Shown here piece by piece: positions 17,938 to 46,885 of a stretch of DNA of 64,000 nucleotides. Numbering within the stretch: position 1 is the stretch's first letter; every line of letters starts with the position of its first letter. The notes below the pieces were generated by a model that searched no databases, was not told the DNA's origin, and saw nothing but the letters and a program-made list of their open reading frames with translations. A program made the translations under genes and the position numbers. Origin of the DNA: Candidatus Poribacteria bacterium (lineage in GTDB: Bacteria > Poribacteria > WGA-4E > PCPOR2b); the NCBI GenBank assembly GCA_965116925.1, contig OZ220744.1, forward strand, positions 1 to 64,000, read 5' to 3'.

Positions 17938-18840
17938 CTAAAACCCACGCTTCATCTTGCCCCAGGTGACGGTGAGTTTGCCAGCCGGGTCAACCGATAG
18001 CGAGTTTTTGACATTTTTGGTAATTTCGTCCGGACTGAGTGTCCGGTCGTAAACACGATAGATAGCGATGGAACAGTTACAGGTGCGCTGCTGTTCAATA
18101 CGGGCGGAAGTAAATATACCGTGCTGTAGCATTTGGTGCGCTGGATCCCACTCCACCTCAGTTGGAGTGTTGGAAACCTCGGTGCCATCTCGGTAGATTT
18201 TTATACTTTCGCCGCTTTTGAAGGCGATGTGCACCCAGTGCCACTCCTTCTGCCCGATGTTCAGCTTGTTTTTTCGTTTTGCTAAGTCTTGGCGATGTTG
18301 CACGACGTTCTGGGCGATGCTTATGTTTTGGAATATCCCACTACCGTTAGCATCTAACCAGACCCGAACAATCTGATCCCTCGGTGCCCCGGCATTCCAG
18401 CCATCTTTGATGGGAGCCCAGGGCCCAGTCTGGAGCCCAAAGACTTGGTGCTCCTCCAAAAAGAGGGGACCATTTATTCGCATAAGGAGCCCGACGGTAA
18501 AATCTTGAAGATGGATGGTAGGTGCATTTTTATCTTCCTCGTCGTTAGCAAAAACTTCCTTGGACTGAGTTGCGGTATACCAAGCAGCATCGTCCGACTT
18601 AACGCCAATTGCAGGGATTTCAATGGTGCCGTGTTCAAGGTTCGGCTTGCCAAACCCTTTTTTTACTTGGCCACCAGCTGTACCAGCGTTCCGCCACACA
18701 CCGTCGTTTTTCTGCTGGTGTGTTTCTACAGGATTAAAGTAGAGCACGGGGTCCCTGACTGGGCTCGCGGCAAACGCTATGGACGAGATGAGGACTGCGA
18801 TCAGGACCGTACTCAGAATAGCACTGTTAGATATTTTCAT
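17938..18840 (-). CDS. Secreted LamG-like jellyroll protein with C-terminal TWG tail
   Basis: Signal peptide (AFA), 'EWHWVHI', 'IYRDG', 'RVYDRTLSPDEI'; ends SVDPAGKLTVTWGKMKRGF. Confidence 0.8.
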   Translation of the reverse strand: MKISNSAILSTVLIAVLISSIAFAASPVRDPVLYFNPVETHQQKNDGVWRNAGTAGGQVKKGFGKPNLEHGTIEIPAIGVKSDDAAWYTATQSKEVFANDEEDKNAPTIHLQDFTVGLLMRINGPLFLEEHQVFGLQTGPWAPIKDGWNAGAPRDQIVRVWLDANGSGIFQNISIAQNVVQHRQDLAKRKNKLNIGQKEWHWVHIAFKSGESIKIYRDGTEVSNTPTEVEWDPAHQMLQHGIFTSARIEQQRTCNCSIAIYRVYDRTLSPDEITKNVKNSLSVDPAGKLTVTWGKMKRGF

Positions 18841-18968
18841 TTTGATCTATTCCTGATGGATTAGATGAGAGTCTGATATCTCCTGTTTATAAATCAATCA
18901 TTTAATCGAACAGGTATTGAAACATTGGTGAAGAGTTTGGAGATAATCTGTACGGGAAAATCTCCAAA

Positions 18969-19850
18969 CTAAAATCCACGCTTCATCTTGCCCCAAGTGA
19001 TGGCGAGTTTGCCAGCCGGGTCAACCGACAGCGAGTTTCTCACATTTTTGCTGATTTCATCTGGGGTGAGCACCCGGTCGTAGACTCGGTAGATAGCGAT
19101 GGAACAGTTACAGGTCCGCTGCTGCACCTCAAAATTAGAGGTGAATATGCCGTGAAGATTCAGATTGTGCGCCGGATCCCACTTAACTTCTGTTGGATTG
19201 GAGGCGGCCTCTGTGCCATCGAGGTAGGTGGTCACACTCACACCACTTTCAAAGGCAATATGAATCCAATGCCACTCGTTTTCTCCAAGCTTCAGCTTAT
19301 TTCGCCTGTTTGAAAAGTCGTGACGGGCTTGTATAACATTTTGGGCGATACTTACGTTTTGGACAATGCCTTTGCCGGCGACATCCAACCATATCCGAAC
19401 AACCTGCTCATGTGCCCGAGGCGGTATTTTCCCCTCGGTTTGGATGCCTATAATGATGTTTTCCTCTGCGAAATATGGACCGTTGACTCGCATAAGGAGC
19501 CCAATGGTGAAACTTTCGAGATTCAGAACTGGTGCTTTGCGGTCTTCCGCCTCGTTGGCGAAAACTGTCTTAGACCGAGTTGCGGTATACCAGGCGGCAT
19601 CGTCCGCCTTAAGACCGATTGATGGAATTTCAATGGGACCCATTTCAAGGACTGGTTTGGCTTCGCCCTTGCTAATTTCTCCGCCAGCGGTGCCGGCATT
19701 CTTCCAAGCGTTGTCGCCCTTGGCTTGCCGAGTTTCTAAAGGGTTGAAGTAAAGCACTGGTCTCTTCACCGGGCTCGCGGCAAGTGCTATGGAGGATGTC
19801 AGCACCATGATAAGCGCGAGGGTGAGGATAGTTCTGTTAGACGTTTTCAT
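18969..19850 (-). CDS. Secreted LamG-like jellyroll protein, tandem paralog
   Basis: Colinear with 17938..18840; ends SVDPAGKLAITWGKMKRGF. Confidence 0.8.
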   Translation of the reverse strand: MKTSNRTILTLALIMVLTSSIALAASPVKRPVLYFNPLETRQAKGDNAWKNAGTAGGEISKGEAKPVLEMGPIEIPSIGLKADDAAWYTATRSKTVFANEAEDRKAPVLNLESFTIGLLMRVNGPYFAEENIIIGIQTEGKIPPRAHEQVVRIWLDVAGKGIVQNVSIAQNVIQARHDFSNRRNKLKLGENEWHWIHIAFESGVSVTTYLDGTEAASNPTEVKWDPAHNLNLHGIFTSNFEVQQRTCNCSIAIYRVYDRVLTPDEISKNVRNSLSVDPAGKLAITWGKMKRGF

Positions 19851-20034
19851 ATTGATGCACTCCTTCTGCGTTCTGGTAGAGGAGAGTTTTATGCTCTCCC
19901 TGTTGAGCTACTGATAGCTTGTGCAATTCTGGTTGCCAAATCCCCACAATAAGACCTGAGAATCCTTATAAAAGTTTAACAAAAAATCACTCGATTGTCT
20001 ACAAAAATAAGCAATAGTACTGAGGTAACATCAG

Positions 20035-21219
20035 ATGGTCAATTTACATAACAGATGGATTTCCTTTTTCCTTATCGTGATTTGCCTGAATCTGTGCAGC
20101 TTCTCCCTCTATTCGGAGTCTGAATTTCAGACGCATCTCCAGAAGGCAGATCTGTACGCGAGTCAACGCGAATTTTTCAAAGCGGTTGAACATCTCTCGG
20201 AGGCGATCAAGATTCGTCCGCGAGAGGTTGAAGTATACGCTCAATTTGCAATTGTCTGCAGCAGACTGGGCTGGATTGATAAGGCAGTTGAATATTACGC
20301 AATTGCGCTGCAACTCGATCCCGACTCACCAAGTGCACAATACGGCTTAAAGGTGCTCGGACACTACCAGATCGGCTTAATCTATGCGAGGAAGGGGGCA
20401 TTTGAAAAAGCGAAAACCCAATATCAACTTGCCATCGAATTGGATCCGGAGCTCTCCCTGCCACATTTCCAACTCGGCTACCTCTTGACCCAACAAGGGA
20501 AGTTTGAGGAAGCCGTTCCCTTTTACCAAAAAGCGATAGCACTTTATCCAAATCACACAGGTGCCTACTATCAACTGGCGAATGCCTATTTCCGGATGGG
20601 CAAACAGGAGGAAGGGAAACGTCAGTTGGAAAAGTTTCGGGAGATTAAGGCGAAGGAACGGTTTAATCTTGCAGAGCAATCGCTGAAGGAGGGAGAAATT
20701 GACGACGCGCTAACAGCGTTTCAGCGAGCACTGGATATGGATGCCACCTTCGCGCCGGCTTATGCACGACTCAGCACCATTGCGCTCCAACAGAATGATT
20801 TGGAAACCGCAGCGGAATATCTCCAACAAGCACTTGAGATCAGACCCAATTTTGCTGCAGGTCACTATCAATTGGGCAGTATCTATCACAAACAGGGTGA
20901 AGTTGAGAAAGCAATTGAATCGTTTGAGACCGCTCTCCAACTTCGCCCAAATTTTGCCCCGGCTTGTAATACACTCGCTTGGCTCTATGCCGAGAGCGAA
21001 AAAAACATAGGTGACGCGATTACACTTGCGAGAAAGGCTATTGAGTTAAAGCCAACCGCTTCCTACTGGGACACCCTCGCATACGCTCTTTATAAAGCGC
21101 GAAGATACAAGGAAGCCGCCGAAGCTATTGCCACGGCACTTGACTTACAACCCAATGATCCGGACTATGTAGCACGCCAGAAATTAATCCAAAAAGCAAT
21201 CGCCGAACAGAAGAAATGA
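20035..21219 (+). CDS. Exported tetratricopeptide-repeat protein
   Basis: Signal-like N-terminus; many 'A..L.P....A.Y.LG' TPR units; 'YWDTLAYALY'. Confidence 0.9.
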   Translation: MVNLHNRWISFFLIVICLNLCSFSLYSESEFQTHLQKADLYASQREFFKAVEHLSEAIKIRPREVEVYAQFAIVCSRLGWIDKAVEYYAIALQLDPDSPSAQYGLKVLGHYQIGLIYARKGAFEKAKTQYQLAIELDPELSLPHFQLGYLLTQQGKFEEAVPFYQKAIALYPNHTGAYYQLANAYFRMGKQEEGKRQLEKFREIKAKERFNLAEQSLKEGEIDDALTAFQRALDMDATFAPAYARLSTIALQQNDLETAAEYLQQALEIRPNFAAGHYQLGSIYHKQGEVEKAIESFETALQLRPNFAPACNTLAWLYAESEKNIGDAITLARKAIELKPTASYWDTLAYALYKARRYKEAAEAIATALDLQPNDPDYVARQKLIQKAIAEQKK

Positions 21220-22940
21220 GGAAAAGCAGAATGGAAGGAAGGTTACTTTACGCAATACGCAATACGCAATACACATTACGTTTCGTCCATCACATTTCAC
21301 GTTTCACGTTTCACGTTCTCCTCATCTTACTATTTGTGCCTTTAACTCTCGCAGCCCAAACACTAACCTTCACCGACGTGACCGCAGAAGCCGGCATCGG
21401 TTTTAAGCATACAAACGGCAGGAGCGGTGAATTTTATTTTGTCGAACAGCTCGGCTCAGGAGCAGCATTTTTTGATTACGATCACGATGGAGATCTTGAT
21501 ATCTACTTCGTCAACGGAGCGGATCTGCCCGGTTTTCAACCGGAGAAGCCACCAACAAATCGCCTCTATCAAAATGATGGGGACGGGACCTTCACTGATG
21601 TGACAGAATTTGCCGGGGTGGGAGACAAAAGTTACGGTGTTGGCTGCTGTGTCGGGGATTATGACAACGATGGACATCTTGACCTGTATGTAACCAATTT
21701 TGGAAAGAATCGTCTCTATCGCAACAACGGAGATGGTACTTTCACCGATGTGGCAGACCGAGCCAATGTTGCAGATGGGCGTTGGGGGGCTTCTTGCGCC
21801 TTTGCAGACTATGATAATGATGGACATCTTGATCTCTATGTGACCAACTATATTCAGTACCAACTGGATAAAAACAAAATCTGCGAGAATAAGGGGGTAC
21901 GCACCTATTGCAACCCGCAGGAATACGTGGGCGAGGCGGATATCCTCTATCGAAGCAATGGCGACGGAACATATACGGAAGTCACCCAAGCAGCGGGCGT
22001 TTACCAATCGCGAAGCAGAGGGCTTGGAATCGTCTGGGGTGATTACGACAGCGATGGCTATATTGACCTCTATGTGGCGAACGACACGAATGAGAACCAC
22101 CTGTTTCACAATAACGGCGATGGATCATTCTCCGACATGGCTTTTTTTGCAGGCGTTGCGTTGAACGAAAACGGCGAGATGGGGAGCGGCATGGGCGTTG
22201 ACTTTGGGGATTATAACAATGATGGTCGCTTGGATATTATGGTTACTAATTTTCAGGACGAAGTGGCAACCCTATACCATAATGATGGAGATGGTTTTTT
22301 CTCTGACGCTTCTTATATTTCTGGCACAGGCGAAAGCACCTACCCATCTTTGGGGTGGGGTGTCTGTTTCTTCGACTATGATAACGACGGTGCCAAGGAT
22401 ATATTTATCGCCAACGGACATATCTTCGGCAATGTTGAGAAGTTCACCCCTGAAACAACTTACGCGCAGGTCAATCACCTTTTCAGGAATCTAGGGGGCG
22501 GAGTTTTTCAAGAGGTTACAGCCAATGTCGGACTCGATCTATCCCAAAAAGCACCCAGTCGGGGGGCTGCATTCGGAGATTATGATAATGATGGTGACGT
22601 AGATATATTAGTCACCAACAGCGATGGAAAGCCACAACTGCTCAGGAACGATGGCGGAAATCGGAACAATTGGGTGAAAGTGCACATCCGTGGAACTACA
22701 AGTAACCGGGCGGGGATCGGTGCGCGGGTCGAAGTCATTACCGAGGACGTTTCACAGATGGCTGAAGTCAAAAGTGGTTCCGGTTACCTTTGCCAAAATG
22801 CACTCGCTCTGCATTTCGGTTTAGGGGATCATACGGTCATTGATAAAATCATCGCAACGTTTCCAAGTGGATATGTTTATACAATGGAAACGGTTCCAGT
22901 CAATCAAATTATTGAAATTACAGAACCCAACGGGAAGTGA
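21216..22940 (+). CDS. CRTAC1/ASPIC-UnbV family FG-GAP repeat protein
   Basis: Seven DYDNDG.LD-type repeats, N.GDGTF.DVT motifs, and C-terminal 'IGARV…SGSGY…LHFGLG'. Its ATG overlaps the TPR gene stop (ATGA). Confidence 0.9.
   Translation: MRKSRMEGRLLYAIRNTQYTLRFVHHISRFTFHVLLILLFVPLTLAAQTLTFTDVTAEAGIGFKHTNGRSGEFYFVEQLGSGAAFFDYDHDGDLDIYFVNGADLPGFQPEKPPTNRLYQNDGDGTFTDVTEFAGVGDKSYGVGCCVGDYDNDGHLDLYVTNFGKNRLYRNNGDGTFTDVADRANVADGRWGASCAFADYDNDGHLDLYVTNYIQYQLDKNKICENKGVRTYCNPQEYVGEADILYRSNGDGTYTEVTQAAGVYQSRSRGLGIVWGDYDSDGYIDLYVANDTNENHLFHNNGDGSFSDMAFFAGVALNENGEMGSGMGVDFGDYNNDGRLDIMVTNFQDEVATLYHNDGDGFFSDASYISGTGESTYPSLGWGVCFFDYDNDGAKDIFIANGHIFGNVEKFTPETTYAQVNHLFRNLGGGVFQEVTANVGLDLSQKAPSRGAAFGDYDNDGDVDILVTNSDGKPQLLRNDGGNRNNWVKVHIRGTTSNRAGIGARVEVITEDVSQMAEVKSGSGYLCQNALALHFGLGDHTVIDKIIATFPSGYVYTMETVPVNQIIEITEPNGK
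21249..21315 (+). repeat. Two heptamer tandem arrays, (TACGCAA)3 and (TTTCACG)3
   Basis: Read directly at 21249-21269 and 21295-21315, within the signal-peptide n-region. Confidence 0.85.
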
Positions 22941-22953
22941 CATCAAAAAATGG

Positions 22954-22982
22954 TTGCAATAATTTGTGAAAAATGCTAATAT
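22954..22982 (+). promoter_or_regulatory. Putative sigma-70 promoter of the LamG gene
   Basis: TTGCAA-17 nt-TAATAT with extended -10 TG. Confidence 0.5.
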
Positions 22983-23073
22983 TAGATACTAGACGAAGCG
23001 GCAGTGTGCCGCCAAATTCTTGATTCTGCTGGAACGACTCAGCATCGACTCGTAAATATCAGGAGGTTCACGA

Positions 23074-23973
23074 ATGAACACGGTGTTAAAATCGACCTTG
23101 GTGTGTGTCAGTCTTGTCGCTCTTGGGCTGATCTTCACGCATTCAGGGTATACAAAAATTGAGCTTGCAGACGAGGACATCGTAGGAATCTGGCTCTTTG
23201 ATGAGGCAGATGGCGCTGCAATCGTTGATGCAAGTGGCCACCACGCAGACGGTACAATCAATAACATCACCGCAGGTGGTGTAACCAGAGAACCAGGTAA
23301 ATTTGGAGGGGCGCTTAAATTCCCCCATGTAGATGGGGAAATGAATAACGTTACCATCCCGAATCCACAGAACTACAACGCCTTTGACGAGTTTACCATA
23401 TCCTTGTGGGTTAAGGCACAATCTACTCCCAACTTGAATCAACGTATGTTTTCAAACGAATCGTTTCCGGGCGGAGATGGAAGCCGAAATATCGTCTGGG
23501 AGCTGAACTTCGGCGCAGGAGAGACAGCGCGTATTGTTTTCGGTGCCGATGGATGTTGCAAGTGGGCTGATGCTCCAGCACCACGCGACCTGCTAACGGA
23601 TGACGTGTGGCATCATGTCGTTGGGCTATGGAAACAACCGTCTTTGCTCGTCTATACCGATGGCAGAAAAGGACTGGAGAAATGTTTCGATGGGGACAGC
23701 CCAAACGGTGACGACCCGTGTAACGCACTGCCAGACCTCAAGGCAGCCGGAGATCCATTCATCATTGGTACCCGTCCGAATGATACCGGTAATTTTAACG
23801 GGCTCATGGACGATGTCGCGCTGCTCGATCGTGCATTGAGTGAAGACGAAATTCGGACCATCATGGACGATGGACTTGAGGCAGGTGCACTTGCTGTTAG
23901 CCCGAAAGGCAAAGCTACCACAACTTGGGGTGCCATCAAGAGTCGAAATACTCGAACGAATTTTAGCAGGTAG
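23074..23973 (+). CDS. Secreted LamG domain protein with C-terminal TWG tail
   Basis: AGGAGG SD; signal peptide; 'VGIWLFDE', 'GKFGGAL.F', 'FTISLWVK', 'WHHVVG', 'G.MDDV…DRALSEDEI'; tail AVSPKGKATTTWGAIKS. Confidence 0.88.
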   Translation: MNTVLKSTLVCVSLVALGLIFTHSGYTKIELADEDIVGIWLFDEADGAAIVDASGHHADGTINNITAGGVTREPGKFGGALKFPHVDGEMNNVTIPNPQNYNAFDEFTISLWVKAQSTPNLNQRMFSNESFPGGDGSRNIVWELNFGAGETARIVFGADGCCKWADAPAPRDLLTDDVWHHVVGLWKQPSLLVYTDGRKGLEKCFDGDSPNGDDPCNALPDLKAAGDPFIIGTRPNDTGNFNGLMDDVALLDRALSEDEIRTIMDDGLEAGALAVSPKGKATTTWGAIKSRNTRTNFSR

Positions 23974-24002
23974 TACTCCGTTAATTTTTTTCAATCAACT
24001 CA

Positions 24003-24037
24003 AACCTTGCGAGGGTTTCAAAAACCTTCGCAAGGTT
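24003..24037. terminator. Hairpin downstream of the LamG gene (terminator or REP-like)
   Basis: AACCTTGCGAGGGTTT-CAA-AAACCTTCGCAAGGTT: 16-bp stem with one G-U pair. Confidence 0.55.
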
Positions 24038-24208
24038 GCTTATCTATTTATCTAACCACTTCCCACCTTCCGAACCTCACCCGTCTGAACCACCCGCCGC
24101 TTGAAGTGACCGTATGCTTCTTAGTCCCGATTTATCGGGGTTTCTGAATCCCGGTCTCGTATCGGGGTAAAGTTGGTTGCCAAGCGAACCCCAAAAAGGA
24201 AATAAAAT

Positions 24209-24982: not shown

Positions 24983-25028
24983 CACTGCTTGAGAGGCAAA
25001 ATCAGAAAATCTTCAACGGGAGAACTAT

Positions 25029-26123: not shown

Positions 26124-26166
26124 GGTTGCAGCGGGTTAGGCCAAACTCCAAGAACAATTTCTATCA

Positions 26167-27357
26167 ATGAAAATTACGGATCTAAAATGCACCGTCTTGG
26201 GTAGCAACCTTGTGATTCGCATAACAACCGACAAGGGAATCAGTGGGCTAGGGGAGGTGGCAGCTCCTAAACACTACCTGAAACCTCATATTATGTTTTA
26301 CAAGGATTTCATAGTCGGAGAAGATCCCACGGACGTAGAACGGGTCATGATGCGAATCCGCAAAGGCGGCAGCTTTAAGCCGTGGGGCTGTGCAGTGAGT
26401 ACCATAGAAATGGCACTCTGGGATATTGCCGGCAAAGCAGCGGGCGTTCCGGTCTACAAGCTACTGGGAGGTAAAATCCGGGATAAAGTTCGGGTCTATA
26501 ACGGTGCGGTCAGATTTCCAATGAACGGAAATTCCCCGGAAGCCTACGCTGCAAACATGAAAAAGATGAAAGCCTCGCCCGAAGGTTTTACCATTATTAA
26601 GCAGGGGATCGCGTTTCATAGCGGAATGCCAAATCAGGTGCCGGACTACTTCTACGGTGAAGTCCAGGCAGGGCGTTTTGCAAGGAACAGCGGGGTCTTG
26701 ACTGAGCGCGGGTTGAAATATACGATTGATTGTGTCGCGGCGATGAAGGAGGTCTTAGGTGATGAGGTCGGGCTGGCTTTGGACTGTGGACCTGGATTGA
26801 CAGTTCCCGACGCGATTAGGCTGGCGAAAGCTTTGGAACCGTTAAACGTGATGTGGCTCGAAGATATGATCACCGGCGACTATGTGCCGTACGTATTGGC
26901 GGATCTTTACCGAGACGTGACGCAAAGCACATCGACACCGATCCACACCGGCGAACAGATCTACCTCCGACAGAACTTCAAAGATTTAATCGAGAAGCGG
27001 GCTGTGGATGTAATCGGTCCTGATCCAGGTGACATCGGCGGGATTGCAGAACTGAAATGGGTGGCGGAATATGCAGACCTGCACGGCATTCTTATGGCAC
27101 CCCACGGTATATTCATTGGACTCATCGGTCTTGCTGCCCTCGTTCAGGTGTCGGCGACATTGCCCCAAAATTATATCGCTTTCGAGTATACGGTCGGAAA
27201 CCCCAAGTGGTGGTATGATATAGTCGAAGGGCTGCCAAATCCTATCGTCGAAGATGGGTTCATCACGGTTTGGGACACGCCCGGCATGGGTGTCGAGTTC
27301 AACGAGGAGGCCACAAGGCAGTATCTCCCTGAAGGCGACGAGGACTTTTTCGATTAA
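26167..27357 (+). CDS. Mandelate racemase/muconate lactonizing enzyme family protein, copy 1
   Basis: EMALWDIAGK, PVYKLLGG, metal ligands (LDC, WLED, TGE), PD, GGIAE, APH and PGMGVE. Confidence 0.92.
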   Translation: MKITDLKCTVLGSNLVIRITTDKGISGLGEVAAPKHYLKPHIMFYKDFIVGEDPTDVERVMMRIRKGGSFKPWGCAVSTIEMALWDIAGKAAGVPVYKLLGGKIRDKVRVYNGAVRFPMNGNSPEAYAANMKKMKASPEGFTIIKQGIAFHSGMPNQVPDYFYGEVQAGRFARNSGVLTERGLKYTIDCVAAMKEVLGDEVGLALDCGPGLTVPDAIRLAKALEPLNVMWLEDMITGDYVPYVLADLYRDVTQSTSTPIHTGEQIYLRQNFKDLIEKRAVDVIGPDPGDIGGIAELKWVAEYADLHGILMAPHGIFIGLIGLAALVQVSATLPQNYIAFEYTVGNPKWWYDIVEGLPNPIVEDGFITVWDTPGMGVEFNEEATRQYLPEGDEDFFD

Positions 27358-27359
27358 GT

Positions 27360-27417
27360 TTTCACGTCCCGATACATCGGGATCCTCGGAACGGGATTTT
27401 ACGCATCACGTTTCACG
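27360..27417 (+). repeat. CCCGAT/ATCGGG palindrome embedded among heptamer repeats
   Basis: TTTCACG, TCCCGAT-AC-ATCGGGA, then TTTTACG-CATCACG-TTTCACG. Confidence 0.65.
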
Positions 27418-27493
27418 TTATCAACAATTACAAACTAACACCATCAGTTTATAGGGGTAAGGTTATACCAAATCCAAAGGATAACTTATATCA

Positions 27494-28684
27494 ATGAAGA
27501 TTACGGATTTAAAATGCACTGTCTTAGGTTCCAACCCTGTGGTTCGCATAACAACCGACGAAGGAATCAGCGGGTTGGGAGAGGTGGAGGCTAGTAAACA
27601 CTACCTGAAACCTCATATTATGTTTTACAAGGACTTCATAGTCGGGGAAGATCCCACGGACGTGGAACGAGTGATGATGCGGATCCGCAAAGGCGGTAGC
27701 TTTAAGCCGTGGGGCAGCTCAGTAAGTGCGATAGAGATGGCACTTTGGGACATCGCCGGCAAAGCAGCGGGGGTTCCGGTCTACAAGTTACTGGGCGGTA
27801 AAATCCGGGATAAAGTTCGGGTCTATAATGGTGCGGTCAGGTATCCGATGGACGGAGATACGCCAGAAGCCCACGCTGAAAATATGAAAAGGATGAAAGC
27901 CTCCCCCGAAGGATTCACCATTATTAAGCAGGGGATCGCGTTTCATAGCGGAATGCCAAATCGGCCGGACTACTTCTACGGTGAAGTCCAACCGGGGCGT
28001 TTTGCAAGGACGAGTGGTGTCTTGACTGAGCGTGGGCTGAACTATACGATTGATTGTATTCAGGCAATGAAGGAGGCTTTGGGAGATGAGGTCGGTTTGG
28101 CTTTGGACTGTGGTCCTGGGTTGACAGTTCCTGATGCACTTAAACTTGCAAAGGCTGTGGAGCCGTTAAACGTGATGTGGCTTGAAGACATGATCACCGG
28201 CGACTATGTGCCGTACGTTTTAGCAGACCTCTATCGAGACGTAACGCAAAACACATCGACACCAATTCACACCGGCGAACAGATCTACCTCCGACAGAAC
28301 TTCAAAGATCTAATCGAGAAACGAGCCGTGGATGTAATCGGTCCCGACCCATGTGACATCGGCGGCATCGCGGAGTTGAAGTGGGTTGCAGAATACGCAG
28401 ACCTGCACGGCATTCTTATGGCGCCCCACGGGGTACTTGATGGACTTATCGGTCTTGCCGCGCTCGTTCAGGTGTCGGCGACCTTGCCCCAGAATTATAT
28501 CGCTTTTGAGTATCCGACCGGAAACCCCGCGTGGTGGTACGATATCGTCGAAGGACTGCCAGATCCCATTGTCGAAGATGGATTCATCACGGTTTGGGAC
28601 ACGCCCGGTATGGGAGTCGAACTCAACGAAGAAGCCACAAAGCAGTATCTCCCTGAAGGTGACGAAGACTTTTTCGATAATTAG
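27494..28684 (+). CDS. Mandelate racemase/muconate lactonizing enzyme family protein, copy 2
   Basis: Near-identical tandem paralog of 26167..27357. Confidence 0.92.
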   Translation: MKITDLKCTVLGSNPVVRITTDEGISGLGEVEASKHYLKPHIMFYKDFIVGEDPTDVERVMMRIRKGGSFKPWGSSVSAIEMALWDIAGKAAGVPVYKLLGGKIRDKVRVYNGAVRYPMDGDTPEAHAENMKRMKASPEGFTIIKQGIAFHSGMPNRPDYFYGEVQPGRFARTSGVLTERGLNYTIDCIQAMKEALGDEVGLALDCGPGLTVPDALKLAKAVEPLNVMWLEDMITGDYVPYVLADLYRDVTQNTSTPIHTGEQIYLRQNFKDLIEKRAVDVIGPDPCDIGGIAELKWVAEYADLHGILMAPHGVLDGLIGLAALVQVSATLPQNYIAFEYPTGNPAWWYDIVEGLPDPIVEDGFITVWDTPGMGVELNEEATKQYLPEGDEDFFDN

Positions 28685-28694
28685 AGGAACGGAT

Positions 28695-39493: not shown

Positions 39494-39511
39494 TTGAAAG
39501 GAGTCGATAAA

Positions 39512-39697
39512 ATGTTAATGACTTATACTGCAAAATATACAAAAATAGATTCCGGGTATATGGGACAATTAGTCGAATGGCCCGAAGTAATCACCGAAGG
39601 AAGCACTTTGGAAGATTGCCGAGGAATGCTTCAAGATGCACTGCGCGAAATGATAATGGCATATCATCAGCAGAACCAAGAGATCCCGGTTGGATAA
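39512..39697 (+). CDS. HicB-family antitoxin-like small protein
   Basis: YTAKY…GYMG..VEWPEVITEG.TLEDCR.ML.DAL…EIP; AAGGAG SD. Confidence 0.8.
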   Translation: MLMTYTAKYTKIDSGYMGQLVEWPEVITEGSTLEDCRGMLQDALREMIMAYHQQNQEIPVG

Positions 39698-39763
39698 CTG
39701 TTAATCAATTGTGCAAACAAGCTGGATTGAAACTGAATTTCTGATATTGAAAGGACTGAATTT

Positions 39764-41158
39764 ATGGCAGAAAACGAAGATACAAATGTAGAGAGGCACT
39801 CTGAAGATCCCTATGCGCTGCGAAGCGAATATATTCAAGAACCTCCCGTCGGTTTTTGGAATACGGTCAAGTTTCTCGGACCGGGGTTAATCTTAGTTGG
39901 TTCCGTGGTTGGGTCAGGCGAAATTATTCTGACGACAACGCTCGGCGCGACGGTCGGTTTTGTAATGCTCTGGTGGATGCTGCTTAGTTGCTGGGGTAAG
40001 AGTATTGTGCAGGCGGAACTCGGACGTTACGCTGTCTCATCGGGCAGTACCGCTCTCGCTGCGTTCAACGACATCCCCGGCAAGTTTCCCTTTTTCCGCA
40101 GCAAAATGTCTTGGTTTATTTTGCTATGGTTTTTGCAACAGATTCCCGGTCTCATGGGCGGTGGTGGAATTTATGGGGGCGCGGGACAGGCGTTGAGCAT
40201 GATGATGCCGTTTATGGATTCCAGATATTGGACAATTATTGTTGCTGTAGTGACGGCAGTGCTAATTCTGAGCGGCACCTATCGTTTCCTCGAAAAGCTG
40301 CTAACCTTTATGGTTGTGACCTTCACTTTTATTACGCTGGTATGTGCGGTCCTGTTGCAATTCACAGAGTATGCTATCACATGGGCGGACGTGGGAGCTG
40401 GACTGAGGTTTGATTTTCCCACCTTCGCAATCGCAGCCGCATTGGCGGCTTATGGAGGCACCGGGGTCAATGCCGGTGAGTCGATGGCGTACACCTACTG
40501 GTGCACTGAAAAGGGCTATGCCCGTTTCACCGGACCGACCGATGACAGCGAAGGTTGGGTAAACCGGGCGCGTGGCTGGATTCGCGTTATGCAGACCGAT
40601 GTGGTTCTGACGCTAATTGTCCTGACTTTTGCGACGATTCCTTTTTACATGCTGGGTGCCGGTGTCCTGAACCGTATGGGGCAGATGCCCGATGGGTTGG
40701 ATACGCTCAGCATTCTGTCTAATATGTACACACAGACGTTAGGTCAATGGGCGTGGTGGCTGTTCATGTTCGGAGGATTCTTTGTCCTCTTTTCAACGGT
40801 GGTTTCAGGGCTTGGCGGTGGCTCACGAATGATCGCCGATGTAATGGGTGTTATCGGTGTGATTGACCCCAACGACTACGAAAAGAGAGTCCGTGTGCGA
40901 CGTATCTGGGCAGTAGCTGCACCAGCCATCCAGTCGTTGTGCTATTTCTTTATTAAGAATCCGGTCTGGATGCTTACTATCAGTGGCACGATTGGGGCGA
41001 TGATGATGCCGCTCGTTGCGGGCAATACAATCTACCTGCGATATTTCCGCACAGACCGCCGCATCGCACCGGGAGGGAAGTCCGACGCAGTGCTTTGGAT
41101 CTGCTTCCTTGCCATGATCGGACTTGCAATCTATGCCATCTATCTTCGATTTGCCTAG
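39764..41158 (+). CDS. Nramp-superfamily (atypical) secondary transporter
   Basis: LGPGLIL.GS.VGSGE, ELGRY, Y.YWC.EKGYAR and about 11 TM helices; lacks the DPGN motif of MntH. Confidence 0.8.
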   Translation: MAENEDTNVERHSEDPYALRSEYIQEPPVGFWNTVKFLGPGLILVGSVVGSGEIILTTTLGATVGFVMLWWMLLSCWGKSIVQAELGRYAVSSGSTALAAFNDIPGKFPFFRSKMSWFILLWFLQQIPGLMGGGGIYGGAGQALSMMMPFMDSRYWTIIVAVVTAVLILSGTYRFLEKLLTFMVVTFTFITLVCAVLLQFTEYAITWADVGAGLRFDFPTFAIAAALAAYGGTGVNAGESMAYTYWCTEKGYARFTGPTDDSEGWVNRARGWIRVMQTDVVLTLIVLTFATIPFYMLGAGVLNRMGQMPDGLDTLSILSNMYTQTLGQWAWWLFMFGGFFVLFSTVVSGLGGGSRMIADVMGVIGVIDPNDYEKRVRVRRIWAVAAPAIQSLCYFFIKNPVWMLTISGTIGAMMMPLVAGNTIYLRYFRTDRRIAPGGKSDAVLWICFLAMIGLAIYAIYLRFA

Positions 41159-41163
41159 ACTTC

Positions 41164-41191
41164 GTAGGGAACCCAGATCCGCGTTCCCTAC
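41164..41191. repeat. GTAG…CTAC REP-like palindrome
   Basis: GTAGGGAAC-N10-GTTCCCTAC. Confidence 0.65.
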
Positions 41192-41210
41192 TATGAAAGG
41201 AATGAAATTG

Positions 41211-41942
41211 ATGCTCACCCCCGAAGAAAAGCAATCCTACGAGGAGAACGGTTTTATTCTAAAAAAAGCCCTCGCTTCACCTGAAGATATAGAAAAAATC
41301 CGTGAAGAGATCGAAGACATTCACAATCGCATGGCGGAACAACCGGTTGAGGACGTTGGTCTCTCATGGGAAGAGTTCGATGACCCCACCCTGCCCCCAC
41401 GCCTCAAGCAGCTGATGCACAGTGAGGTGATAAGCCCGACCCTGAACAAAATCTTGCGATCAGATACAATGTTGGACATTATTGAACAGATGATTGGTCC
41501 CGATGTTTCACTGTATCACAGCAAGCTGCTCCCCAAAGATGCCAAAGATGGCACGGCGATTCCGTGGCATCAGGATTATGCCTATTGGAATCGGGACGAT
41601 AACCGTCCGCTGATGGTGAATTGCCAACTCGCAATTGATGCCACAACTCGGGAGAACGGCTGCATCCAATTTGTCCCCGGCAGCCATACGTGGGGTTTGC
41701 AGGAACATCAACGACGTCAACAAACATTTGGCGTATTTTTGCCGGGACACTACCATGAACGTGAGGATGCTGTCCAAGTGGAGATGGAACCGGGGGATGG
41801 GGTCTTTTTCAACGCGCTGATTATTCACGGCTCTGCCGCCAACACCTCTGGCCTACCTCGACGAATGAACACCTTCGCTTATAACGTCACAGGCAACGGG
41901 TTGATGCAGTGTCGGCAGGCGTTACGCGGTAAACCGCTGTGA
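41211..41942 (+). CDS. PhyH-family Fe(II)/2-oxoglutarate dioxygenase
   Basis: YEENGFI, PWHQDYAY, ENGCI.FVPGSH and IHGSAAN motifs; start reassigned to MLTPEE. Confidence 0.92.
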   Translation: MLTPEEKQSYEENGFILKKALASPEDIEKIREEIEDIHNRMAEQPVEDVGLSWEEFDDPTLPPRLKQLMHSEVISPTLNKILRSDTMLDIIEQMIGPDVSLYHSKLLPKDAKDGTAIPWHQDYAYWNRDDNRPLMVNCQLAIDATTRENGCIQFVPGSHTWGLQEHQRRQQTFGVFLPGHYHEREDAVQVEMEPGDGVFFNALIIHGSAANTSGLPRRMNTFAYNVTGNGLMQCRQALRGKPL

Positions 41943-41997
41943 TACGTGCAACACGATGGGGCGTTTTTCTGTTTGGATACGAAAGTAGGTACATAAC

Positions 41998-43989
41998 ATG
42001 GCTTCTAAGAAAACTGTTGCTTACAACGAACTGCTAGATTCTAACGATCTCACAATTTACGATCTGGAAACCCATTCATCCGGTCCTGAGGGCAGTCTGC
42101 CACTCACGCCGGAGATGCTGCTCAATTTGCCGAGCGGGGATGTCTTCGCATGGAGTCATAATGCGGGTATGGGATGGGCACCCGGTGAACTCAATCGGAG
42201 AGAGTTCCTCATCCTGAGCACACAAGGAGGTATCCGCGCGCCGGATGGGAGTCCAATCGCGCTTGGCTACCACACCGGGCATTGGGAGGTTGGCTTGTTG
42301 ATGCAGGCTGCCGCCGAGGAATTTAAAGAGCTAGGCATGATCCCGTTTGCCGGATTCTGTTCGGATCCATGTGATGGACGTACACAGGGCACCCCCGGTA
42401 TGATGGACAGCCTCGCCTACCGTAACGACGCCGCAATAGTTTTCCGGCGGCTCATTCGGTCAATGCCGACGCGCAAAGGGGTGATGATGGTTGCGACCTG
42501 TGACAAAGGGTTACCTGCCACGATGATTGCAATCGCTGCGATGCGCGATCTGCCGTGCGTATTAGTCCCCGGTGGGGTGACATTACCGCCGACCGAAGGT
42601 GAGGATGCGGGCATGATTCAGTCCATCGGTGCCCGTTTTGCACACGGGGAGATCTCCTTGGAGGATGCTTCTGACTTCGGGTGCAAAGCGTGTGCAAGTC
42701 CGGGGGGCGGATGCCAATTTCTTGGAACTGCTGGAACATCGCAGGTCGTTGGCGAGGCGCTAGGGATGACGCTGCCGCATTCAGGGCTTGCACCATCCGG
42801 TCAACCAATCTGGTCAGATATGGCAAAGCGGTCCGCCCGTGCCTTGGTCAACCTCGACGCAAAGGGTATCAAGATGAGTGATATTTTGACAGATGAAGCG
42901 GTGCGGAATGCGATGGTTGTCCACGCCGCCTGCGGAGGTTCGACCAACCTACTCCTGCATATCCCTGCCATCGCCCATGCAGCAAAACTCAGTCGTCCAA
43001 CCGTCGAAGATTGGATGGAGATTAATTGGCAAGTGCCTCGCCTTGTTGATGTCTTACCCAATGGGCCTGTCGGTCATCCAACTGTTCAGCTCTTTCTAGC
43101 GGGGGGTGTGCCTGAAGTGATGCTGCATTTGCGGGAGTTAGGTCTGTTGAACGAAGACGTACTCACCGCTTCAGGCGAACCCCTTGGGCGAAACCTCGAT
43201 TGGTGGGAGAAATCGGAACGTCGGCAGCGTGTCCGAGATCTATTGATGGAACGAGATGGAGTTGATCCGGACGATGTGATTATGACCCCAGAAGCCGCAA
43301 AGGCGCGTGGGTTGACTAGCACGGTCACCTTTCCGCGTGGTAATCTCGCGCCGGAGGGTTCCGTCATCAAAAGCACTGCGATCGATCCTAGCGTTGTTGA
43401 TGAAGATGGCGTGTATCGAATGACCGGGCGTGCCCGTGTCTTTGTCCGTGAGCGCGACGCGATTCGGGCACTCAAAAGCAGTGAGGACGACCAGATTAAG
43501 CCGGGCGAGGTCATGGTGCTTTGCTCCCGCGGTCCTATGGGTTCTGGTATGGAGGAAGTCTACCAGATTACTGCCGCGCTCAAACACCTTTCGTTCGGCA
43601 AGCACGTCGCCCTAATCACCGATGCGCGATTCTCCGGTGTCTCTACCGGCGCGTGCATCGGACATGTCGGACCAGAAGCGTTGTCAGGCGGACCTATTGG
43701 CAAGTTGATTGACGGCGATCAGATCCAGATTCGTGTTGATCGGAATCGGCTTGAAGGGAGCATTGATTTGGTCGGTCATGGAGACCGAATTTTCGGTGTT
43801 GAGGCTGGTACGCAGGTCTTAGCCGAGAGGTCGCCACGTCCGGACCTCGCCCCTGATGACCTGCTACCGGACGATACGCGTCTGTGGGCGGCGCTCCAGA
43901 GTGTCGGTGGCGGAACATGGGGCGGCTGCGTCTACGATGTAGATGCAATTATTGAAACACTTGAAGCCGGTATAAAGCGTGAAACGTAA
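41998..43989 (+). CDS. YjhG/YagF-family (IlvD/Edd superfamily) sugar-acid dehydratase, D-xylonate dehydratase-like
   Basis: [58 protein letters not shown] and GTWGGCVYD motifs. Confidence 0.9.
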
Positions 43990-44019
43990 AACGTAAGAGG
44001 AATTCAGACCTTAATTAAC

Positions 44020-44080
44020 AGAAAGGAGCCCGCAGATCCTACCTCAACTATTTTTTGGTAGGATCTGCGGGATTACTATG
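44020..44080 (+). promoter_or_regulatory. Shine-Dalgarno separated from the start codon by a perfect hairpin
   Basis: AGAAAGGAG (44020-44028), stem CCCGCAGATCCTACC/GGTAGGATCTGCGGG (44029-44071), 6 nt, ATG (44078). Confidence 0.6.
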
Positions 44081-45184
44081 ATAGCACACACGAATCTCGT
44101 CGGTTCTCGTAAGGAAGAACTAGATACGCCGGCGCTCCTGATTGATTTGCCGACAATGGAGCGCAACATTGACCGCATGGCGTCTACCATTATTCACGAA
44201 GCCGGGGTCAATTGGCGCCCCCATACAAAAGGGATGAAAAGCCCCGCACTCGCCCATAAACTCCTTGATGCAGGTGCCATCGGTGTTACCTGCGCCAAAC
44301 TCGGTGAAGCGGAGGTTATGGCTGCTGGTGGTGTGAAGGACATCCTCATTGCTAACCAGATTGTTGGATCGCAGAAGGTTGCTCGTTTGGTCAATTTACG
44401 AAAACATGCGGATGTCATGGTCGCTGTTGACTGCGAAGAGCACGTAGAAGCCATTGACCGCGCAGCCCGTGAGAAGGGGGTGCGTATTCGCCTCGTCATT
44501 GAGATTAATACGGGTATGGATCGAGCTGGCGTAGATCCTGGAGAACCAGCACTCGCTCTGGCTCGTAAGATCCACGGTAGGGAAGGGGTACAGCTTGCGG
44601 GTCTCTTTACATGGGAGTCGATTGCGCTCCGTATTGAAGATCCAGAGGAGAAAAAGCGGATCGTTGACGATGCGCTGACCTCCGTTACGGACACCGCACA
44701 GAAATGCCGAAACGAAGGGATGCCTATCGACGTCATCAGTTGTGGCGGAACGGGAACTTACTGGATCAGTGCTTTTCAGCCGGGTATCACGGAAATTCAG
44801 GCAGGGGGTGGAATCTTCTGTGACGTTATCTACCGCTATCAGTATGGTGTTGAACACCCGTATGCCCTTACAGTTCTCGCCACAGTTACGAGTCGTCCCG
44901 CCCCCACGCGGATTATCTGCGATGCCGGGAGAAAGACTATGAGTGTGGGCGCAGCAGATCCAGATCCCATCGGAATTTCGGACGTAGAATCGGTGGGGAT
45001 GTCAGCGGAACACGGGACGGTGAAACTCACTAAGCCGAGCGAAACGCCGCGTGTCGGAGACAAAATCGAGTTTGTTATCGGCTACTCAGATGTTACCGTC
45101 GCGCTACACGACGAAATCTACGGTATCCGCGAGGGTGTCGTCGAAACAGTTTGGCCCCTTCTCGGACGTGGACGACTGCAATAG
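44078..45184 (+). CDS. DSD1/D-threonine-aldolase family PLP-dependent enzyme (alanine-racemase fold)
   Basis: LDTPALLID, WRPHTK, TCAKLGEAEVM, GGTGTY, DAGRKT and SAEHG motifs. Confidence 0.88.
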   Translation: MIAHTNLVGSRKEELDTPALLIDLPTMERNIDRMASTIIHEAGVNWRPHTKGMKSPALAHKLLDAGAIGVTCAKLGEAEVMAAGGVKDILIANQIVGSQKVARLVNLRKHADVMVAVDCEEHVEAIDRAAREKGVRIRLVIEINTGMDRAGVDPGEPALALARKIHGREGVQLAGLFTWESIALRIEDPEEKKRIVDDALTSVTDTAQKCRNEGMPIDVISCGGTGTYWISAFQPGITEIQAGGGIFCDVIYRYQYGVEHPYALTVLATVTSRPAPTRIICDAGRKTMSVGAADPDPIGISDVESVGMSAEHGTVKLTKPSETPRVGDKIEFVIGYSDVTVALHDEIYGIREGVVETVWPLLGRGRLQ

Positions 45185-45243
45185 GAAAAACGTGAAGGAT
45201 TTGAGGTGCATATTTGTAAGTATTTTACAAAAAAATCGTTTTC

Positions 45244-45843
45244 TCAGGCGTATCTGTCAAACGGCGACTGTTCGTTGATCAGCATGATAGATTGTCCATC
45301 AGCAACGATACGATAGGTGCGACTGAGAAACGGTTGCCCCTCCAAATGAAGGAGTGCCTCCGGCAAATCTTTCGGGCGTTTAAGCCCCCACCACAGCAGA
45401 TCGCGTCGGCTTTCTAAACCGCTGCGCTGCAAGAGCTGTCCCAAACCTTGACCTTTGAGCGTCAAGCCTTCTCTGATGGTTTGTGAGATTCGATCTGGCA
45501 CAATGATTGAGGTCGCGTAAGCGTGGATGATTGGCTGATGCGCGTCCTTTTGCCCCGTTTGCAGCATCACTTGACGAGCAACAATTTCTGTTCCTTTTTC
45601 AGCGTCGAGCCAAATATGATCTGTCGGTAGAGTTTGCATCTCTTGGTGGAGCAGCACAACTTCGACCGGAGAAAATGTATAGGCTTCGATGAACCGTGTC
45701 ACTGTGCCATCGATGACCAATAGTGCCCGCTGAAACGGCGTCAATTGACTCAAGTTCATTTCCTCTAAGTCCGACGGTTTTGCAAACTGGGCGACAAAGA
45801 GATCCTTCATCCGTTTCTTAGAAATGTGAGTTTGCTCTTTCAT
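45244..45843 (-). CDS. Chorismate pyruvate-lyase-like protein (UbiC/Rv2949c/DUF98 type)
   Basis: R.LL..DGTVT..IEAY, RQVML, YA.S.I, LG.LL, SRTYRI and LINE motifs; start reassigned to the ATG just after the Kelch gene stop. Confidence 0.78.
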   Translation of the reverse strand: MKEQTHISKKRMKDLFVAQFAKPSDLEEMNLSQLTPFQRALLVIDGTVTRFIEAYTFSPVEVVLLHQEMQTLPTDHIWLDAEKGTEIVARQVMLQTGQKDAHQPIIHAYATSIIVPDRISQTIREGLTLKGQGLGQLLQRSGLESRRDLLWWGLKRPKDLPEALLHLEGQPFLSRTYRIVADGQSIMLINEQSPFDRYA

Positions 45844-45844
45844 C

Positions 45845-46885
45845 TCATTCAACGTCACTGTTTGAATCTCCTCGCTTGATTTGCCCCCACAGTACTGGCA
45901 GCTTTTCTTTTCCTTCGACATGCAAGGTGCCGGTATCAAATTCTTCCATAGCAGGGAGAATGGCTGGGCCTAGCCCTTCTGCAACCCCACCAACGGCATA
46001 GATCTTATTGTCCACAACACCCGCTCCCAAGAACACTCTTGCCGTTGGCATATCCGTTTCCTGCAACCATGTATCACTCGCGGGATCATACCTCTCAACC
46101 GTGGACAGACCCGGACCTTGTATGACGGCAGCACCACCAATCGCGTAGATCTGTTTTCCAACCACGCCGGTTACTAGCGCACTCCTTTTGCTTGGCATAT
46201 TTGCCTTTGGTGTCCAAGTTTCCGTCGTGGGGTCGTATTCTTCAACGGTTGCAAGCACGGGACCTTGCACGTTAGACGTGCCGCCGAACAGATAGATTTT
46301 TCCATTCACAGTTGCCGCAGACATTCCTGACCGAGGATTTGGCATATCAACTTTTTGATCCCACTTGTCAGTCGCTGGATCATATACCTCGACAACCGGT
46401 AGCACAGGACCGAAGTTTGTTGCGATGCCACCGATGGCATAGATTTTTCCGTCCACAACAGCAGTTGCGAAAAACACTCGTGCCGTGGGCATATCCGCTT
46501 TCTGCGTCCACCTATCGGTTGCCGGATCATATTCTTCTACGGTCGAAAGCGCAGGGGCTTGATTATTCCAGCCACCGATGGCATATATCTTTCCATTAAC
46601 AGCCGTAGTCACAACTCCTGCGCGTGCGGCTGGCATATCTGCTTTCTGCGCCCATGTATCAGTCGCTGGCGTGTAGGTATCGACCCTTGCAATCGGTTCG
46701 GCGAGCATACCACCTATAACATAAACCAGTTCACCAGCTGCGCTCACCGAGAAAAAGAGTCTTGGAAAAGGCATGTCGGTCTTTTTTGACCATTCTCCCT
46801 CCGCCGCAAGGCTGACCGAAGGGATTGCCAACAGTCCATTTAGTACTAATCCAAGTCCAAGTGCCCAAAACAAAAAACGTTTCAT
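45845..46885 (-). CDS. Secreted Kelch-repeat beta-propeller with C-terminal WG tail
   Basis: Signal peptide; six units of KIYAIGG…VE.YDPATD.W..K.DMP..R; tail HVEGKEKLPVLWGQIKR. Confidence 0.92.
   Translation of the reverse strand: MKRFLFWALGLGLVLNGLLAIPSVSLAAEGEWSKKTDMPFPRLFFSVSAAGELVYVIGGMLAEPIARVDTYTPATDTWAQKADMPAARAGVVTTAVNGKIYAIGGWNNQAPALSTVEEYDPATDRWTQKADMPTARVFFATAVVDGKIYAIGGIATNFGPVLPVVEVYDPATDKWDQKVDMPNPRSGMSAATVNGKIYLFGGTSNVQGPVLATVEEYDPTTETWTPKANMPSKRSALVTGVVGKQIYAIGGAAVIQGPGLSTVERYDPASDTWLQETDMPTARVFLGAGVVDNKIYAVGGVAEGLGPAILPAMEEFDTGTLHVEGKEKLPVLWGQIKRGDSNSDVE

Follow-up and report, generated by a model that had tools for sequence, protein, structure and literature searches.

The T9SS CTD system is best known from genomes that bear GldN. 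In published accounts of this system, a single translocon is described as handling several signals by way of cognate barrels, with PorP/SprF-type shuttles for type B and type C CTDs (PMC12618676, PMC10202324), and in Flavobacterium the T9SS motor is described as required for release of cargo from the translocon (PMC10994853). The latter account also places a helix at the periplasmic side of PorV, with the C-terminal helix of SkpA touching this barrel (PMC10994853), and PorA is described as having a CTD (PMC7712824). Here, we report a C-terminal tail of exported Poribacteria proteins, the TWG tail, and suggest that it forms a helix that is recognised by a protein and serves targeting or docking in a motor-less T9SS, a reading for and against which we find the case evenly balanced. 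Such a system would have SprA, barrels of the PorV family, peptidases resembling PorU and cargo with CTDs, would lack GldN and GldM, and would be present in Poribacteria and neighbouring FCB phyla.

Results

The window, a stretch of 64,000 nucleotides from a Candidatus Poribacteria genome, contains four tail genes:

17938..18840, minus strand: P0001, exported LamG-like protein of 300 aa with signal peptide and TWG tail; Laminin_G_3 match above cut-off
17947..17997, minus strand: TWG tail of P0001 (residues 282-298); core retained in 14/14 cluster members listed
18969..19850, minus strand: P0002, exported LamG-like protein of 293 aa, tandem paralogue of P0001; passes the Laminin_G_3 cut-off
18978..19028, minus strand: TWG tail of P0002; core retained in 12/14 cluster members listed
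23074..23973, plus strand: P0003, exported LamG protein of 299 aa, in the genome's 25-member LamG group; passes the Laminin_G_3 cut-off
23893..23943, plus strand: TWG tail of P0003, with 9 more residues after it; core retained in 13/14 cluster members listed
45845..46885, minus strand: P0004, exported six-repeat Kelch propeller of 346 aa, in an 8-member Kelch group; Kelch match
45872..45922, minus strand: TWG tail of P0004, followed by 8 more residues; matrix match

The original prediction was that four signal-peptide proteins, three LamG-like and one Kelch, end in the same motif. All four quoted tails were found at their genes and the fold identities were confirmed, genes 17938, 18969 and 23074 passing the Laminin_G_3 cut-off and gene 45845 encoding a Kelch protein. 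By itself, the window is weak evidence, with two of the tail genes being tandem paralogues and only two folds represented. Related copies of the window genes are covered by contigs from four RNA libraries, contigs which show neither transcription nor its level.

Genome-wide, the TWG-tail family consists of ~128 exported proteins, including LamG, Kelch and TolB-like propeller proteins among others. A tail matrix was started from C-terminal matches and then iterated without any restriction on position; it recovers 125 ORFs, the identical set being obtained at all thresholds from 8 to 15 bits. Trp lies ≤20 aa from the C-terminus in 122 of the 125 matrix ORFs compared with 6488 of the 47714 Trp scanned, a C-terminal enrichment far beyond chance. 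A signal-peptide-like N-terminus, called by a hydrophobicity rule and not by SignalP, is observed in 116 of 123 tail proteins (≥150 aa) and in 1017 of 4421 other genes. No TM segment is present, the best 15-aa hydropathy within the last 30 aa having a median of 0.45 and a maximum of 1.54 over the 125 tails. The carriers, which have mostly ligand-binding folds and some of which are already lipoproteins, fall into 14 unrelated similarity groups, the largest holding 75 of the 125. Tail proteins are small, with a 5-95% range of 255-364 aa against 393-1622 aa for CTD proteins. Most free tails stop 4-8 residues past Trp; internal and tandem copies, up to four-fold tandem, also exist, with 2-4 copies per protein in 9 of 150 matches. 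Thus, the tail is enriched at C-termini, is not equally frequent in cytoplasmic proteins and is not part of a single fold or known sorting domain, and the earlier claims of fold-independence, C-terminal position, signal-peptide co-occurrence and absence of a TM helix all stood.

Pfam and NCBIfam models, TIGR04183 and PF18962 included, gave no match for the tails of the four proteins or for 60 tail fragments, the CTD model matching C-termini separate from the tail. No description of the tail was found in openly readable full-text articles or in the Pfam and NCBIfam entries. An ESM Atlas search with the tail returned three unnamed clusters, below 0.9. The suggestion that the tail is not a described domain therefore agrees with Pfam, NCBIfam and the literature searched.

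The tail is present in all 61 Poribacteria genomes searched, at 12-163 copies each. The core, [ST]-W-G-x-[ILV]-K, also ends exported proteins of Eisenbacteria, Krumholzibacteria, Latescibacterota, Zixibacteria, KSB1, Calditrichota and non-Bacteroidia Bacteroidota, the Poribacteria form being this core plus about five extra residues (PxGKL). Outside Poribacteria, 67 of 74 tail proteins have signal peptides by a more lenient rule, and among the carriers are proteins with beta-helix and Chlamydia-PMP repeats, as are usual at cell surfaces. In Latescibacterota, the strict tail pattern is detected in 36 of 71 genomes and SprA in 70 of 71. Homology of the Poribacteria and other tail forms rests on the 6-7 residue core plus the preceding V-E; a search for one body family bearing both forms gave no more than a weak CBM9-like similarity (E about 0.01) and one non-tail BLAST match. 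Viral contigs gave 0 matches to one strict tail pattern. Matches in G066, G156 and G183 and one of two in G197 were left out of the counts as chance, as was L017, a 12-codon ORF. L050 and L113, which belong to other families, were likewise left out; an L050 paralogue lacks the tail.

The genome under study encodes a SprA-like ORF, PorV-family barrels, two C25+CTD proteins and 71 CTD matches, with no match to GldN or GldM. The SprA match scores 62 bits against a curated cut-off of 200; the ORF that contains it, of ~2180 codons, nevertheless shows homology to 19 further SprA proteins. SprA is present in 52 of 54 genomes chosen for carrying the tail, with no match in two draft genomes (G048, G273). 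GldN was detected in 0 of 51 tail genomes, the same search being positive in 37 of 151 Bacteroidota, and GldM was not found in four tail genomes while present in the control G100. In a mostly unresolved tree of PorV-like sequences (29 rows, six genomes), no tail-specific PorV paralogue appeared, and a search for a receptor beside sprA at 21 loci returned lptF/G-like genes, an M28-type peptidase and housekeeping genes, names assigned by sequence reading.

In Ignavibacteria-type genomes, the tail is carried by one conserved Fn3 protein of ~135 aa, in which a terminal helix is predicted at residues 117-128. The tail is the best-conserved part of this protein across classes, suggesting a protein partner. 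In a sample of 151 Bacteroidota, the Fn3-tail protein is found in 55 of 83 SprA+/GldN- genomes and in 0 of 31 SprA- and 0 of 37 GldN+ genomes; no tail protein was found in 27 SprA+/GldN- genomes. The 31 SprA- genomes are all small (1.8-2.8 Mb among those listed) and probably one clade, and the 37 GldN+ genomes are probably one class. The Bacteroidota profile represents few independent events, which counts against the docking reading. As SprA+ Bacteroidota and Latescibacterota without a tail match occur, a motor-less system can exist without a detected tail. Neighbours of the Fn3-tail gene are housekeeping genes, which we take to be Maf, MATE, SpoIID-like and similar, with neither a receptor candidate nor a cognate barrel gene alongside. 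Longer fusions of the protein (12 matches) add only Fn3 repeats, and no solved structure matches it by sequence. A role as Plug substitute was rejected, Plug occurring together with the Fn3-tail protein in G145 and G057.

In 13 of the 67 CTD proteins of this genome, the tail adjoins the T9SS type A CTD at its N-terminal side. In all 13 the Trp position lies exactly 11 residues ahead of N-[YF]-PNP, the remaining 54 proteins scoring below -12. Trp is retained in 2 of the 13 fused tails compared with 126 of 128 free tails. A metagenome search, with a fusion pattern that specified neither Trp nor the upstream part, detected 62 distinct complete tail-CTD fusions having W (29), L (27) or F (6) at the Trp position, with V-[EQ]-P-x-x-K-like text preceding in nearly all. 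The fixed register against the CTD, combined with the tracking of SprA+/GldN- genomes, points to a variant T9SS and not to the wholly separate export system originally proposed. Against docking, an AlphaFold2 model of tail plus CTD does not pack the tail on the CTD, the tail being modelled as disordered (pLDDT 42-54) beside a confident CTD. A tail and a CTD on one protein would also be redundant if both were export signals, a further point against docking. Tail genes lie near CTD genes in 7 of 42 clusters, no excess over chance (null 4.8, P=0.2).

At 1.967-1.977 Mb of this genome (G000), five TolB-like paralogues, 54-83% identical, all carry the tail; three run on into a CTD and two end at the tail. 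Two free L-type tails belong to CTD-less paralogues of fused genes which, with the single group holding 75 carriers, lends some support to the tail being a functionless vestige, a linker left by CTD loss and spread by duplication. We consider this exceedingly improbable, as no CTD remnant occurs downstream of any of the 125 tail genes, Trp is stricter in free than in fused tails, and the tail is kept on 14 unrelated groups here, throughout the 61 genomes of the phylum and, nearly unchanged, on a single-copy gene across classes.

The tail occupies the position where type A CTDs are described as being cut (PMC10202324), fused tails here mostly read K-R immediately ahead of the CTD, and the genome has the two C25+CTD proteins. 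The tail might therefore be the recognition and cleavage site of a PorU-like C25 transpeptidase, at which the protein is cut and joined to glycolipid. This appears quite improbable, however, since 54 of 67 CTD proteins are without the tail, free tails leave little past Trp to remove and a folded CTD is needed in described T9SS sorting; the internal and four-fold tandem copies, which persist, argue against a single clipping site.

The main rival to docking on the T9SS is a non-covalent envelope anchor, with the tail acting as a basic, Trp-bearing amphipathic helix in a membrane leaflet or binding LPS or a surface lattice. Tail-only proteins would be held in the periplasm and tail-CTD proteins would use the tail outside after CTD removal, cleavage leaving the pre-CTD tail terminal; the T9SS link would then be partly shared ancestry. 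The helix predicted in the Fn3-tail protein is consistent with this, as are the amphipathic, basic tails outside Poribacteria (hydrophobic moment 0.49, random C-termini giving 0.27; net charge +2), the internal copies and arrays of 2-4, since the 9 multi-copy matches suit an avidity anchor, and the similar ends of L050 and L113, arising in unrelated proteins by chance or convergence. In contrast, Poribacteria tails are barely above random ends in amphipathicity (0.31 vs 0.27), some carriers are lipoproteins already, and no tail was detected in the Bacteroidota genomes that lack SprA or carry GldN. T-W-G and K are also near-invariant across phyla, more than lipid binding usually needs, and sequence varies among targeting helices of the MinD and FtsA type. 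Anchoring is thus somewhat unlikely.

The predominance of ligand-binding folds among carriers, the lack of a gene-level link to T9SS loci and the SprA-positive clades without detected tail would suit docking on a non-T9SS envelope protein, such as a nutrient-uptake barrel or periplasmic scaffold, positioning lectin-like and propeller binding proteins. This is unlikely, as the exact CTD register in 13 genome and 62 metagenome proteins and the absence from SprA-negative relatives are left unexplained.

Discussion

If the tail is a docking element of a motor-less T9SS, Sec-type signal peptides, recognised here from sequence, would take tail proteins to the periplasm. There the flexible tail is modelled to fold to a short helix with W and I/L, outside Poribacteria also F/Y, on one face. 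A conserved envelope protein, most likely SprA or a PorV-family barrel, would bind it, so that small single-domain proteins lacking a CTD may still be exported, or else retained at the translocon or on the surface. In this scheme, the single-copy Fn3-plus-tail protein would represent the dedicated ligand in its ancestral form, and tens to hundreds of binding proteins would have acquired the tail by grafting in Poribacteria, Eisenbacteria, Krumholzibacteria and Latescibacterota; Poribacteria would have added the PxGKL residues and also placed the tail ahead of the CTD, where Trp is relaxed. A broader proposal, possible but doubtful, is that the TWG helix represents a fourth type of T9SS signal, one that needs no CTD, and is a hallmark of an ancestral motor-less T9SS in at least eight FCB-associated lineages. 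On this proposal, the Fn3-TWG protein would be a core component that has so far escaped recognition and that sits in the binding site of the signal, and Poribacteria would route >100 lectins and propellers per genome through that site to the sponge-facing surface.

Tail genomes with SprA, PorV, PorU-like peptidases and CTD cargo but no GldN/GldM match raise the question of cargo release without a motor, and the tail and single-copy Fn3-tail protein provide a first specific handle on how a motor-less T9SS works. With them, the question also shifts away from Poribacteria, which are uncultured, to lineages of which some members are in culture. In a major sponge symbiont, the tail groups ~2.5% of the genes (128/5225 predicted) into a single class targeted to the envelope, and the motif could join annotation pipelines.

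Among described systems, the T9SS type A CTD (TIGR04183 / PF18962 Por_Secre_tail; FlgD_ig PF13860; PorV shuttle) resembles the tail in being C-terminal, fold-independent and accompanied by a Sec signal peptide, occurs in the same genomes and directly follows the tail in the 13 fused proteins. It is, however, a 70-90 aa Ig-like beta-sandwich, whereas the tail is about 17 aa (core 7), is predicted to be helical or disordered, may lie internally or in tandem and was not found in the sampled GldN-bearing genomes. Type B and C CTDs are folded and about 100 aa or more, no type B/C model matched the tail, and they have cognate barrels whereas tail genes are without an adjoining barrel gene. LPXTG, PEP-CTERM, GlyGly-CTERM and MYXO-CTERM are likewise short motifs of many unrelated exported proteins with lineage-wise expansion; unlike these tripartite signals, the tail has no transmembrane helix or cytoplasmic basic cluster and no NCBIfam match. 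MinD, FtsA and PBP5/DacA have C-terminal amphipathic membrane-targeting helices, similarly short, basic and ending a soluble domain, whereas the tail is sequence-specific and common to unrelated folds, its Poribacteria form being hardly amphipathic. For the Fn3-tail protein, the model is provided by the small T9SS accessories Plug, PorA and SkpA, as translocon-bound, single-copy, non-enzymatic proteins.

The TWG tail in the host genome

A common C-terminal tail had been predicted on four exported window proteins, and all four genes (17938, 18969, 23074 and 45845) were borne out in place with their listed tails, three bodies being assigned by Pfam to Laminin_G_3 and one to Kelch, as the original prediction had it. 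No NCBIfam model scored above its cut-off against the four proteins and none spans the tail. For three of them, the proteins grouped at 90% identity carry the label Candidatus Poribacteria. In the host genome (G000), a single 6.47-Mb contig with a completeness of 99%, a loose tail pattern gave 80 matches among 24,762 ORFs, 67 lying at most 10 aa from the end. The proposed C-terminal position was upheld by an iterated matrix run with no position filter, which selected 125 ORFs, with a clear gap to background; in 122 of them the Trp is no more than 20 aa from the C-terminus. The consensus is [LF]-[SA]-V-x-P-x-G-K-x-x-T-x-W-G-x-[LI]-K, the protein usually ending 7-8 residues past the Trp. A Trp-independent scan added four free tails, those lacking a T9SS type A C-terminal domain (CTD), two of them with Leu, and 0 of 4137 internal windows reached threshold in the control.

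The predicted tie to signal peptides also held, a signal-peptide-like N-terminus being observed in 116/123 carriers compared with 1017/4421 remaining genes. Likewise, the tail is independent of fold, as carrier bodies compared by BLAST without it form 14 unrelated groups (75, 25, 8, 4, 3, 2 and eight singletons). Pfam recognised PD40 propeller, LamG, Kelch, 3-keto-disaccharide hydrolase, DUF3108-like, CBM9-like and cohesin plus PKD domains among body representatives and assigned no family to several others. A strict DNA pattern detected 12-163 copies per genome in 61/61 genomes of the phylum (reversed control, 0-3).

Other window genes were noted in passing. A TPR protein is followed by one with FG-GAP-like repeats, by sequence reading of CRTAC1/ASPIC-UnbV type (20035-22940); a gene resembling the latter adjoins the sprA-like ORF (L126:12329-14050). 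Enolase-superfamily paralogues, two in tandem and of 396 aa each, occupy 26167-28684. Just upstream of the Kelch gene, 46934-50653 encodes a 769-aa outer-membrane-type protein with C-terminus YWWNP and a tail-less TPR and TolB-like lipoprotein.

Range across phyla

On sequence grounds, the tail is not specific to Poribacteria. The pattern T-W-G-x-[IVM]-K-x-x-[FY]-R-stop matched at least 121 stretches of the GTDB collection. Among the matches listed, 80 have titles and 60 of these name a taxon, 58/60 being FCB-type lineages: Ignavibacteria 16, Eisenbacteria 15, Bacteroidota 8, Kapaibacteria or Chlorobi 6, 'Fibrobacteraceae' 4, Latescibacterota 3, Krumholzibacteria 2, Zixibacteria 2, Calditrichaceae 1 and KSB1 1; 67 of 74 closed ORFs among them have a signal-peptide-like start. 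Among 151 sampled genomes of the phylum to which a betaproteobacterial record belongs, 4 genomes matched, in chance-like contexts.

Two modes are observed. Eisenbacteria, Krumholzibacteria and similar genomes mostly hold 4-45 copies, on proteins unrelated to one another; the tail of Ignavibacteria, Kapaibacteria, KSB1 and Calditrichota belongs to one (rarely two) conserved protein of ~135 aa, consisting of a signal peptide, an Fn3-like domain and the end S-S-V-K-R-T-W-G-S-I-K-A-M-F-R:

L244:1501-1896, small Fn3 protein of genome G145
L006, L032, L039 and L257, loci of further examples

It has 3926 relatives at E<=0.001, the named ones all hypothetical or plainly mis-named, and no match among Pfam, NCBIfam or PDB sequences. 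The predicted model is an Fn3 sandwich with a terminal helix at 117-128 (pLDDT about 72), and the Fn3 domain resembles one in many long proteins of the same genomes. Zixibacteria carry one small tail protein with a body unlike the Ignavibacteria type (L003, L014), suggesting that the tail, rather than the body, is what is kept.

The Latescibacterota form, A-V-E-S-x-T-W-G-R-I-K-A-T-F, can be aligned to that of Poribacteria given five inserted residues, and the Poribacteria and other forms are taken as homologous from their sequences, though the common core is short. That core is C-terminal at 38/40 sites in G000. A mixed tail profile gave 523 matches at E<=0.001 among 1.84 billion representatives; of the best 150 of the 523, 148 have their last core no more than 10 aa from the C-terminus, and 9 have 2-4 tail copies, in tandem or following duplicated domains. 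An unnamed NTF2-like family (P0273, P0299, P0310, P0316, P0394, P0397) bears 2-4 copies of TWG, arranged in tandem or placed behind every duplicated domain, several members having lipoprotein signals. Three Latescibacterota genomes (G038, G300 and G261; L379-L381) contain tandem arrays of 5-7 near-identical ~300-aa tail genes; the families are unnamed, and the arrays resemble those of Poribacteria but have different bodies. A Bacteroidia membrane protein with the same C-terminal core, encoded directly after a PorX-like regulator and tsaE (L050:2000-2530), was dropped as convergence, its paralogue lacking the core.

Matches to family models were absent for 60 tail fragments, and full-text searches of the literature found no description of the tail. 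This analysis newly brings in how widely the tail occurs among phyla, its single-copy carrier, its tie to GldN-less T9SS, the relaxed Trp of fused forms and the tandem copies.

Association with a motor-less T9SS

G000 encodes a SprA-like ORF, at least four PorV-family proteins, two C25+CTD proteins and 71 CTD matches, with no match to GldN or GldM. SprA, PorV-family barrels, PorU-like proteins and CTD cargo likewise occur in many FCB lineages (G000, the small-protein genomes G145 and G057, the Latescibacterota genome G038 and others searched), and none of these SprA-bearing genomes matched GldN or GldM. About 8-15 PorV/FadL-like barrel genes are present in G000, including, on contig C1:

843236, barrel gene
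885765, barrel gene
919253, barrel gene
1861896, barrel gene
2908668, barrel gene
3014869, barrel gene
6324622, barrel gene
87417, barrel gene

Several directly adjoin a gene for a protein with a divergent CTD, which suggests dedicated cargo-shuttle pairs. Across 21 loci (L305-L315 among them), sprA is transcribed divergently from lptF/lptG-like genes in 11 and followed by an M28-type peptidase gene in 5.

Phylogenetic profiling against candidate machinery, the check proposed originally, supported the association. In 151 Bacteroidota genomes, SprA is present in 120 and GldN in 37, every GldN genome also having SprA. Tail proteins were detected in 36 genomes by pattern, in 19 further ones by HMM with the tail confirmed and in one probable case (G173), all within the 83 SprA-positive, GldN-negative genomes; as kin are not independent, this profile amounts to about three evolutionary events and Fisher values overstate it. 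None was found in the 31 SprA-negative genomes (pattern on 31, HMM on 20), in the 37 GldN-positive genomes (pattern on 37, HMM on 13) or in 27 SprA-positive, GldN-negative genomes, a laxer threshold on five of these giving the same result. Latescibacterota have a tail match in only 36/71 genomes compared with SprA in 70, and two draft genomes have tails with no SprA match. A fair statement is that the tail is nearly always found with SprA, is not found with the motor and is dispensable for SprA. A dock independent of T9SS is improbable. The small Fn3 protein may be a core component of the motor-less T9SS.

The tail in front of the CTD

One of the 125 matrix ORFs runs on into a CTD. Among 67 CTD proteins of G000 with room to score, 13 have the motif before the CTD, the Trp position lying exactly 11 residues before N-[YF]-PNP, and the remaining 54 score far lower. 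The fused bodies are TolB-like, FG-GAP, TIG/BNR, subtilase and LDL-receptor-repeat. Within one cluster of five paralogues, three have the CTD and two lack it. Clustering of tail genes with CTD genes was not found in G000. A PorU site would be a decidedly improbable role for the tail. Trp is kept in 126/128 free tails compared with 2/13 fused tails. A metagenome pattern whose sole fixed parts were G-x-[IV]-K-R and the beginning of the CTD matched 84 stretches, 62 distinct complete fragments having W (29), L (27) or F (6) at the Trp position. That the tail is a vestige is scarcely credible.

AlphaFold2 (63-row alignment) folded the CTD with confidence and left the tail disordered beside it, so that the tail is, in this model, no part of the CTD fold; its predicted conformation is helix or disorder. 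Most tail-less CTD proteins of G000 carry one of two conserved pre-CTD modules (e.g. C1:394028-396709), one helical and ending L-E-Q-L-L, the other beta-rich, which may be alternative anchors.

Proposed role

The tail would be recognised by a protein: T-W-G and K hardly vary from phylum to phylum, and in a single-copy gene no other stretch is conserved as well as the tail. Gene neighbourhoods, fusions and trees yielded no receptor candidates. Attachment to lipid or LPS, with the tail as anchor, is rather unlikely. Preferred over these four alternatives, with an even chance of being correct, is a docking or targeting element on a variant translocon. Distinct signals pair with distinct barrels in Flavobacterium (PMC12618676), shuttle-bound cargo is released there by the motor (PMC10994853), and the T9SS signals given in a 2023 review are type A, B and C CTDs (PMC10202324); taken with the distribution, the fixed abutment and the conservation of the tail, this comparison favours a docking or targeting role.
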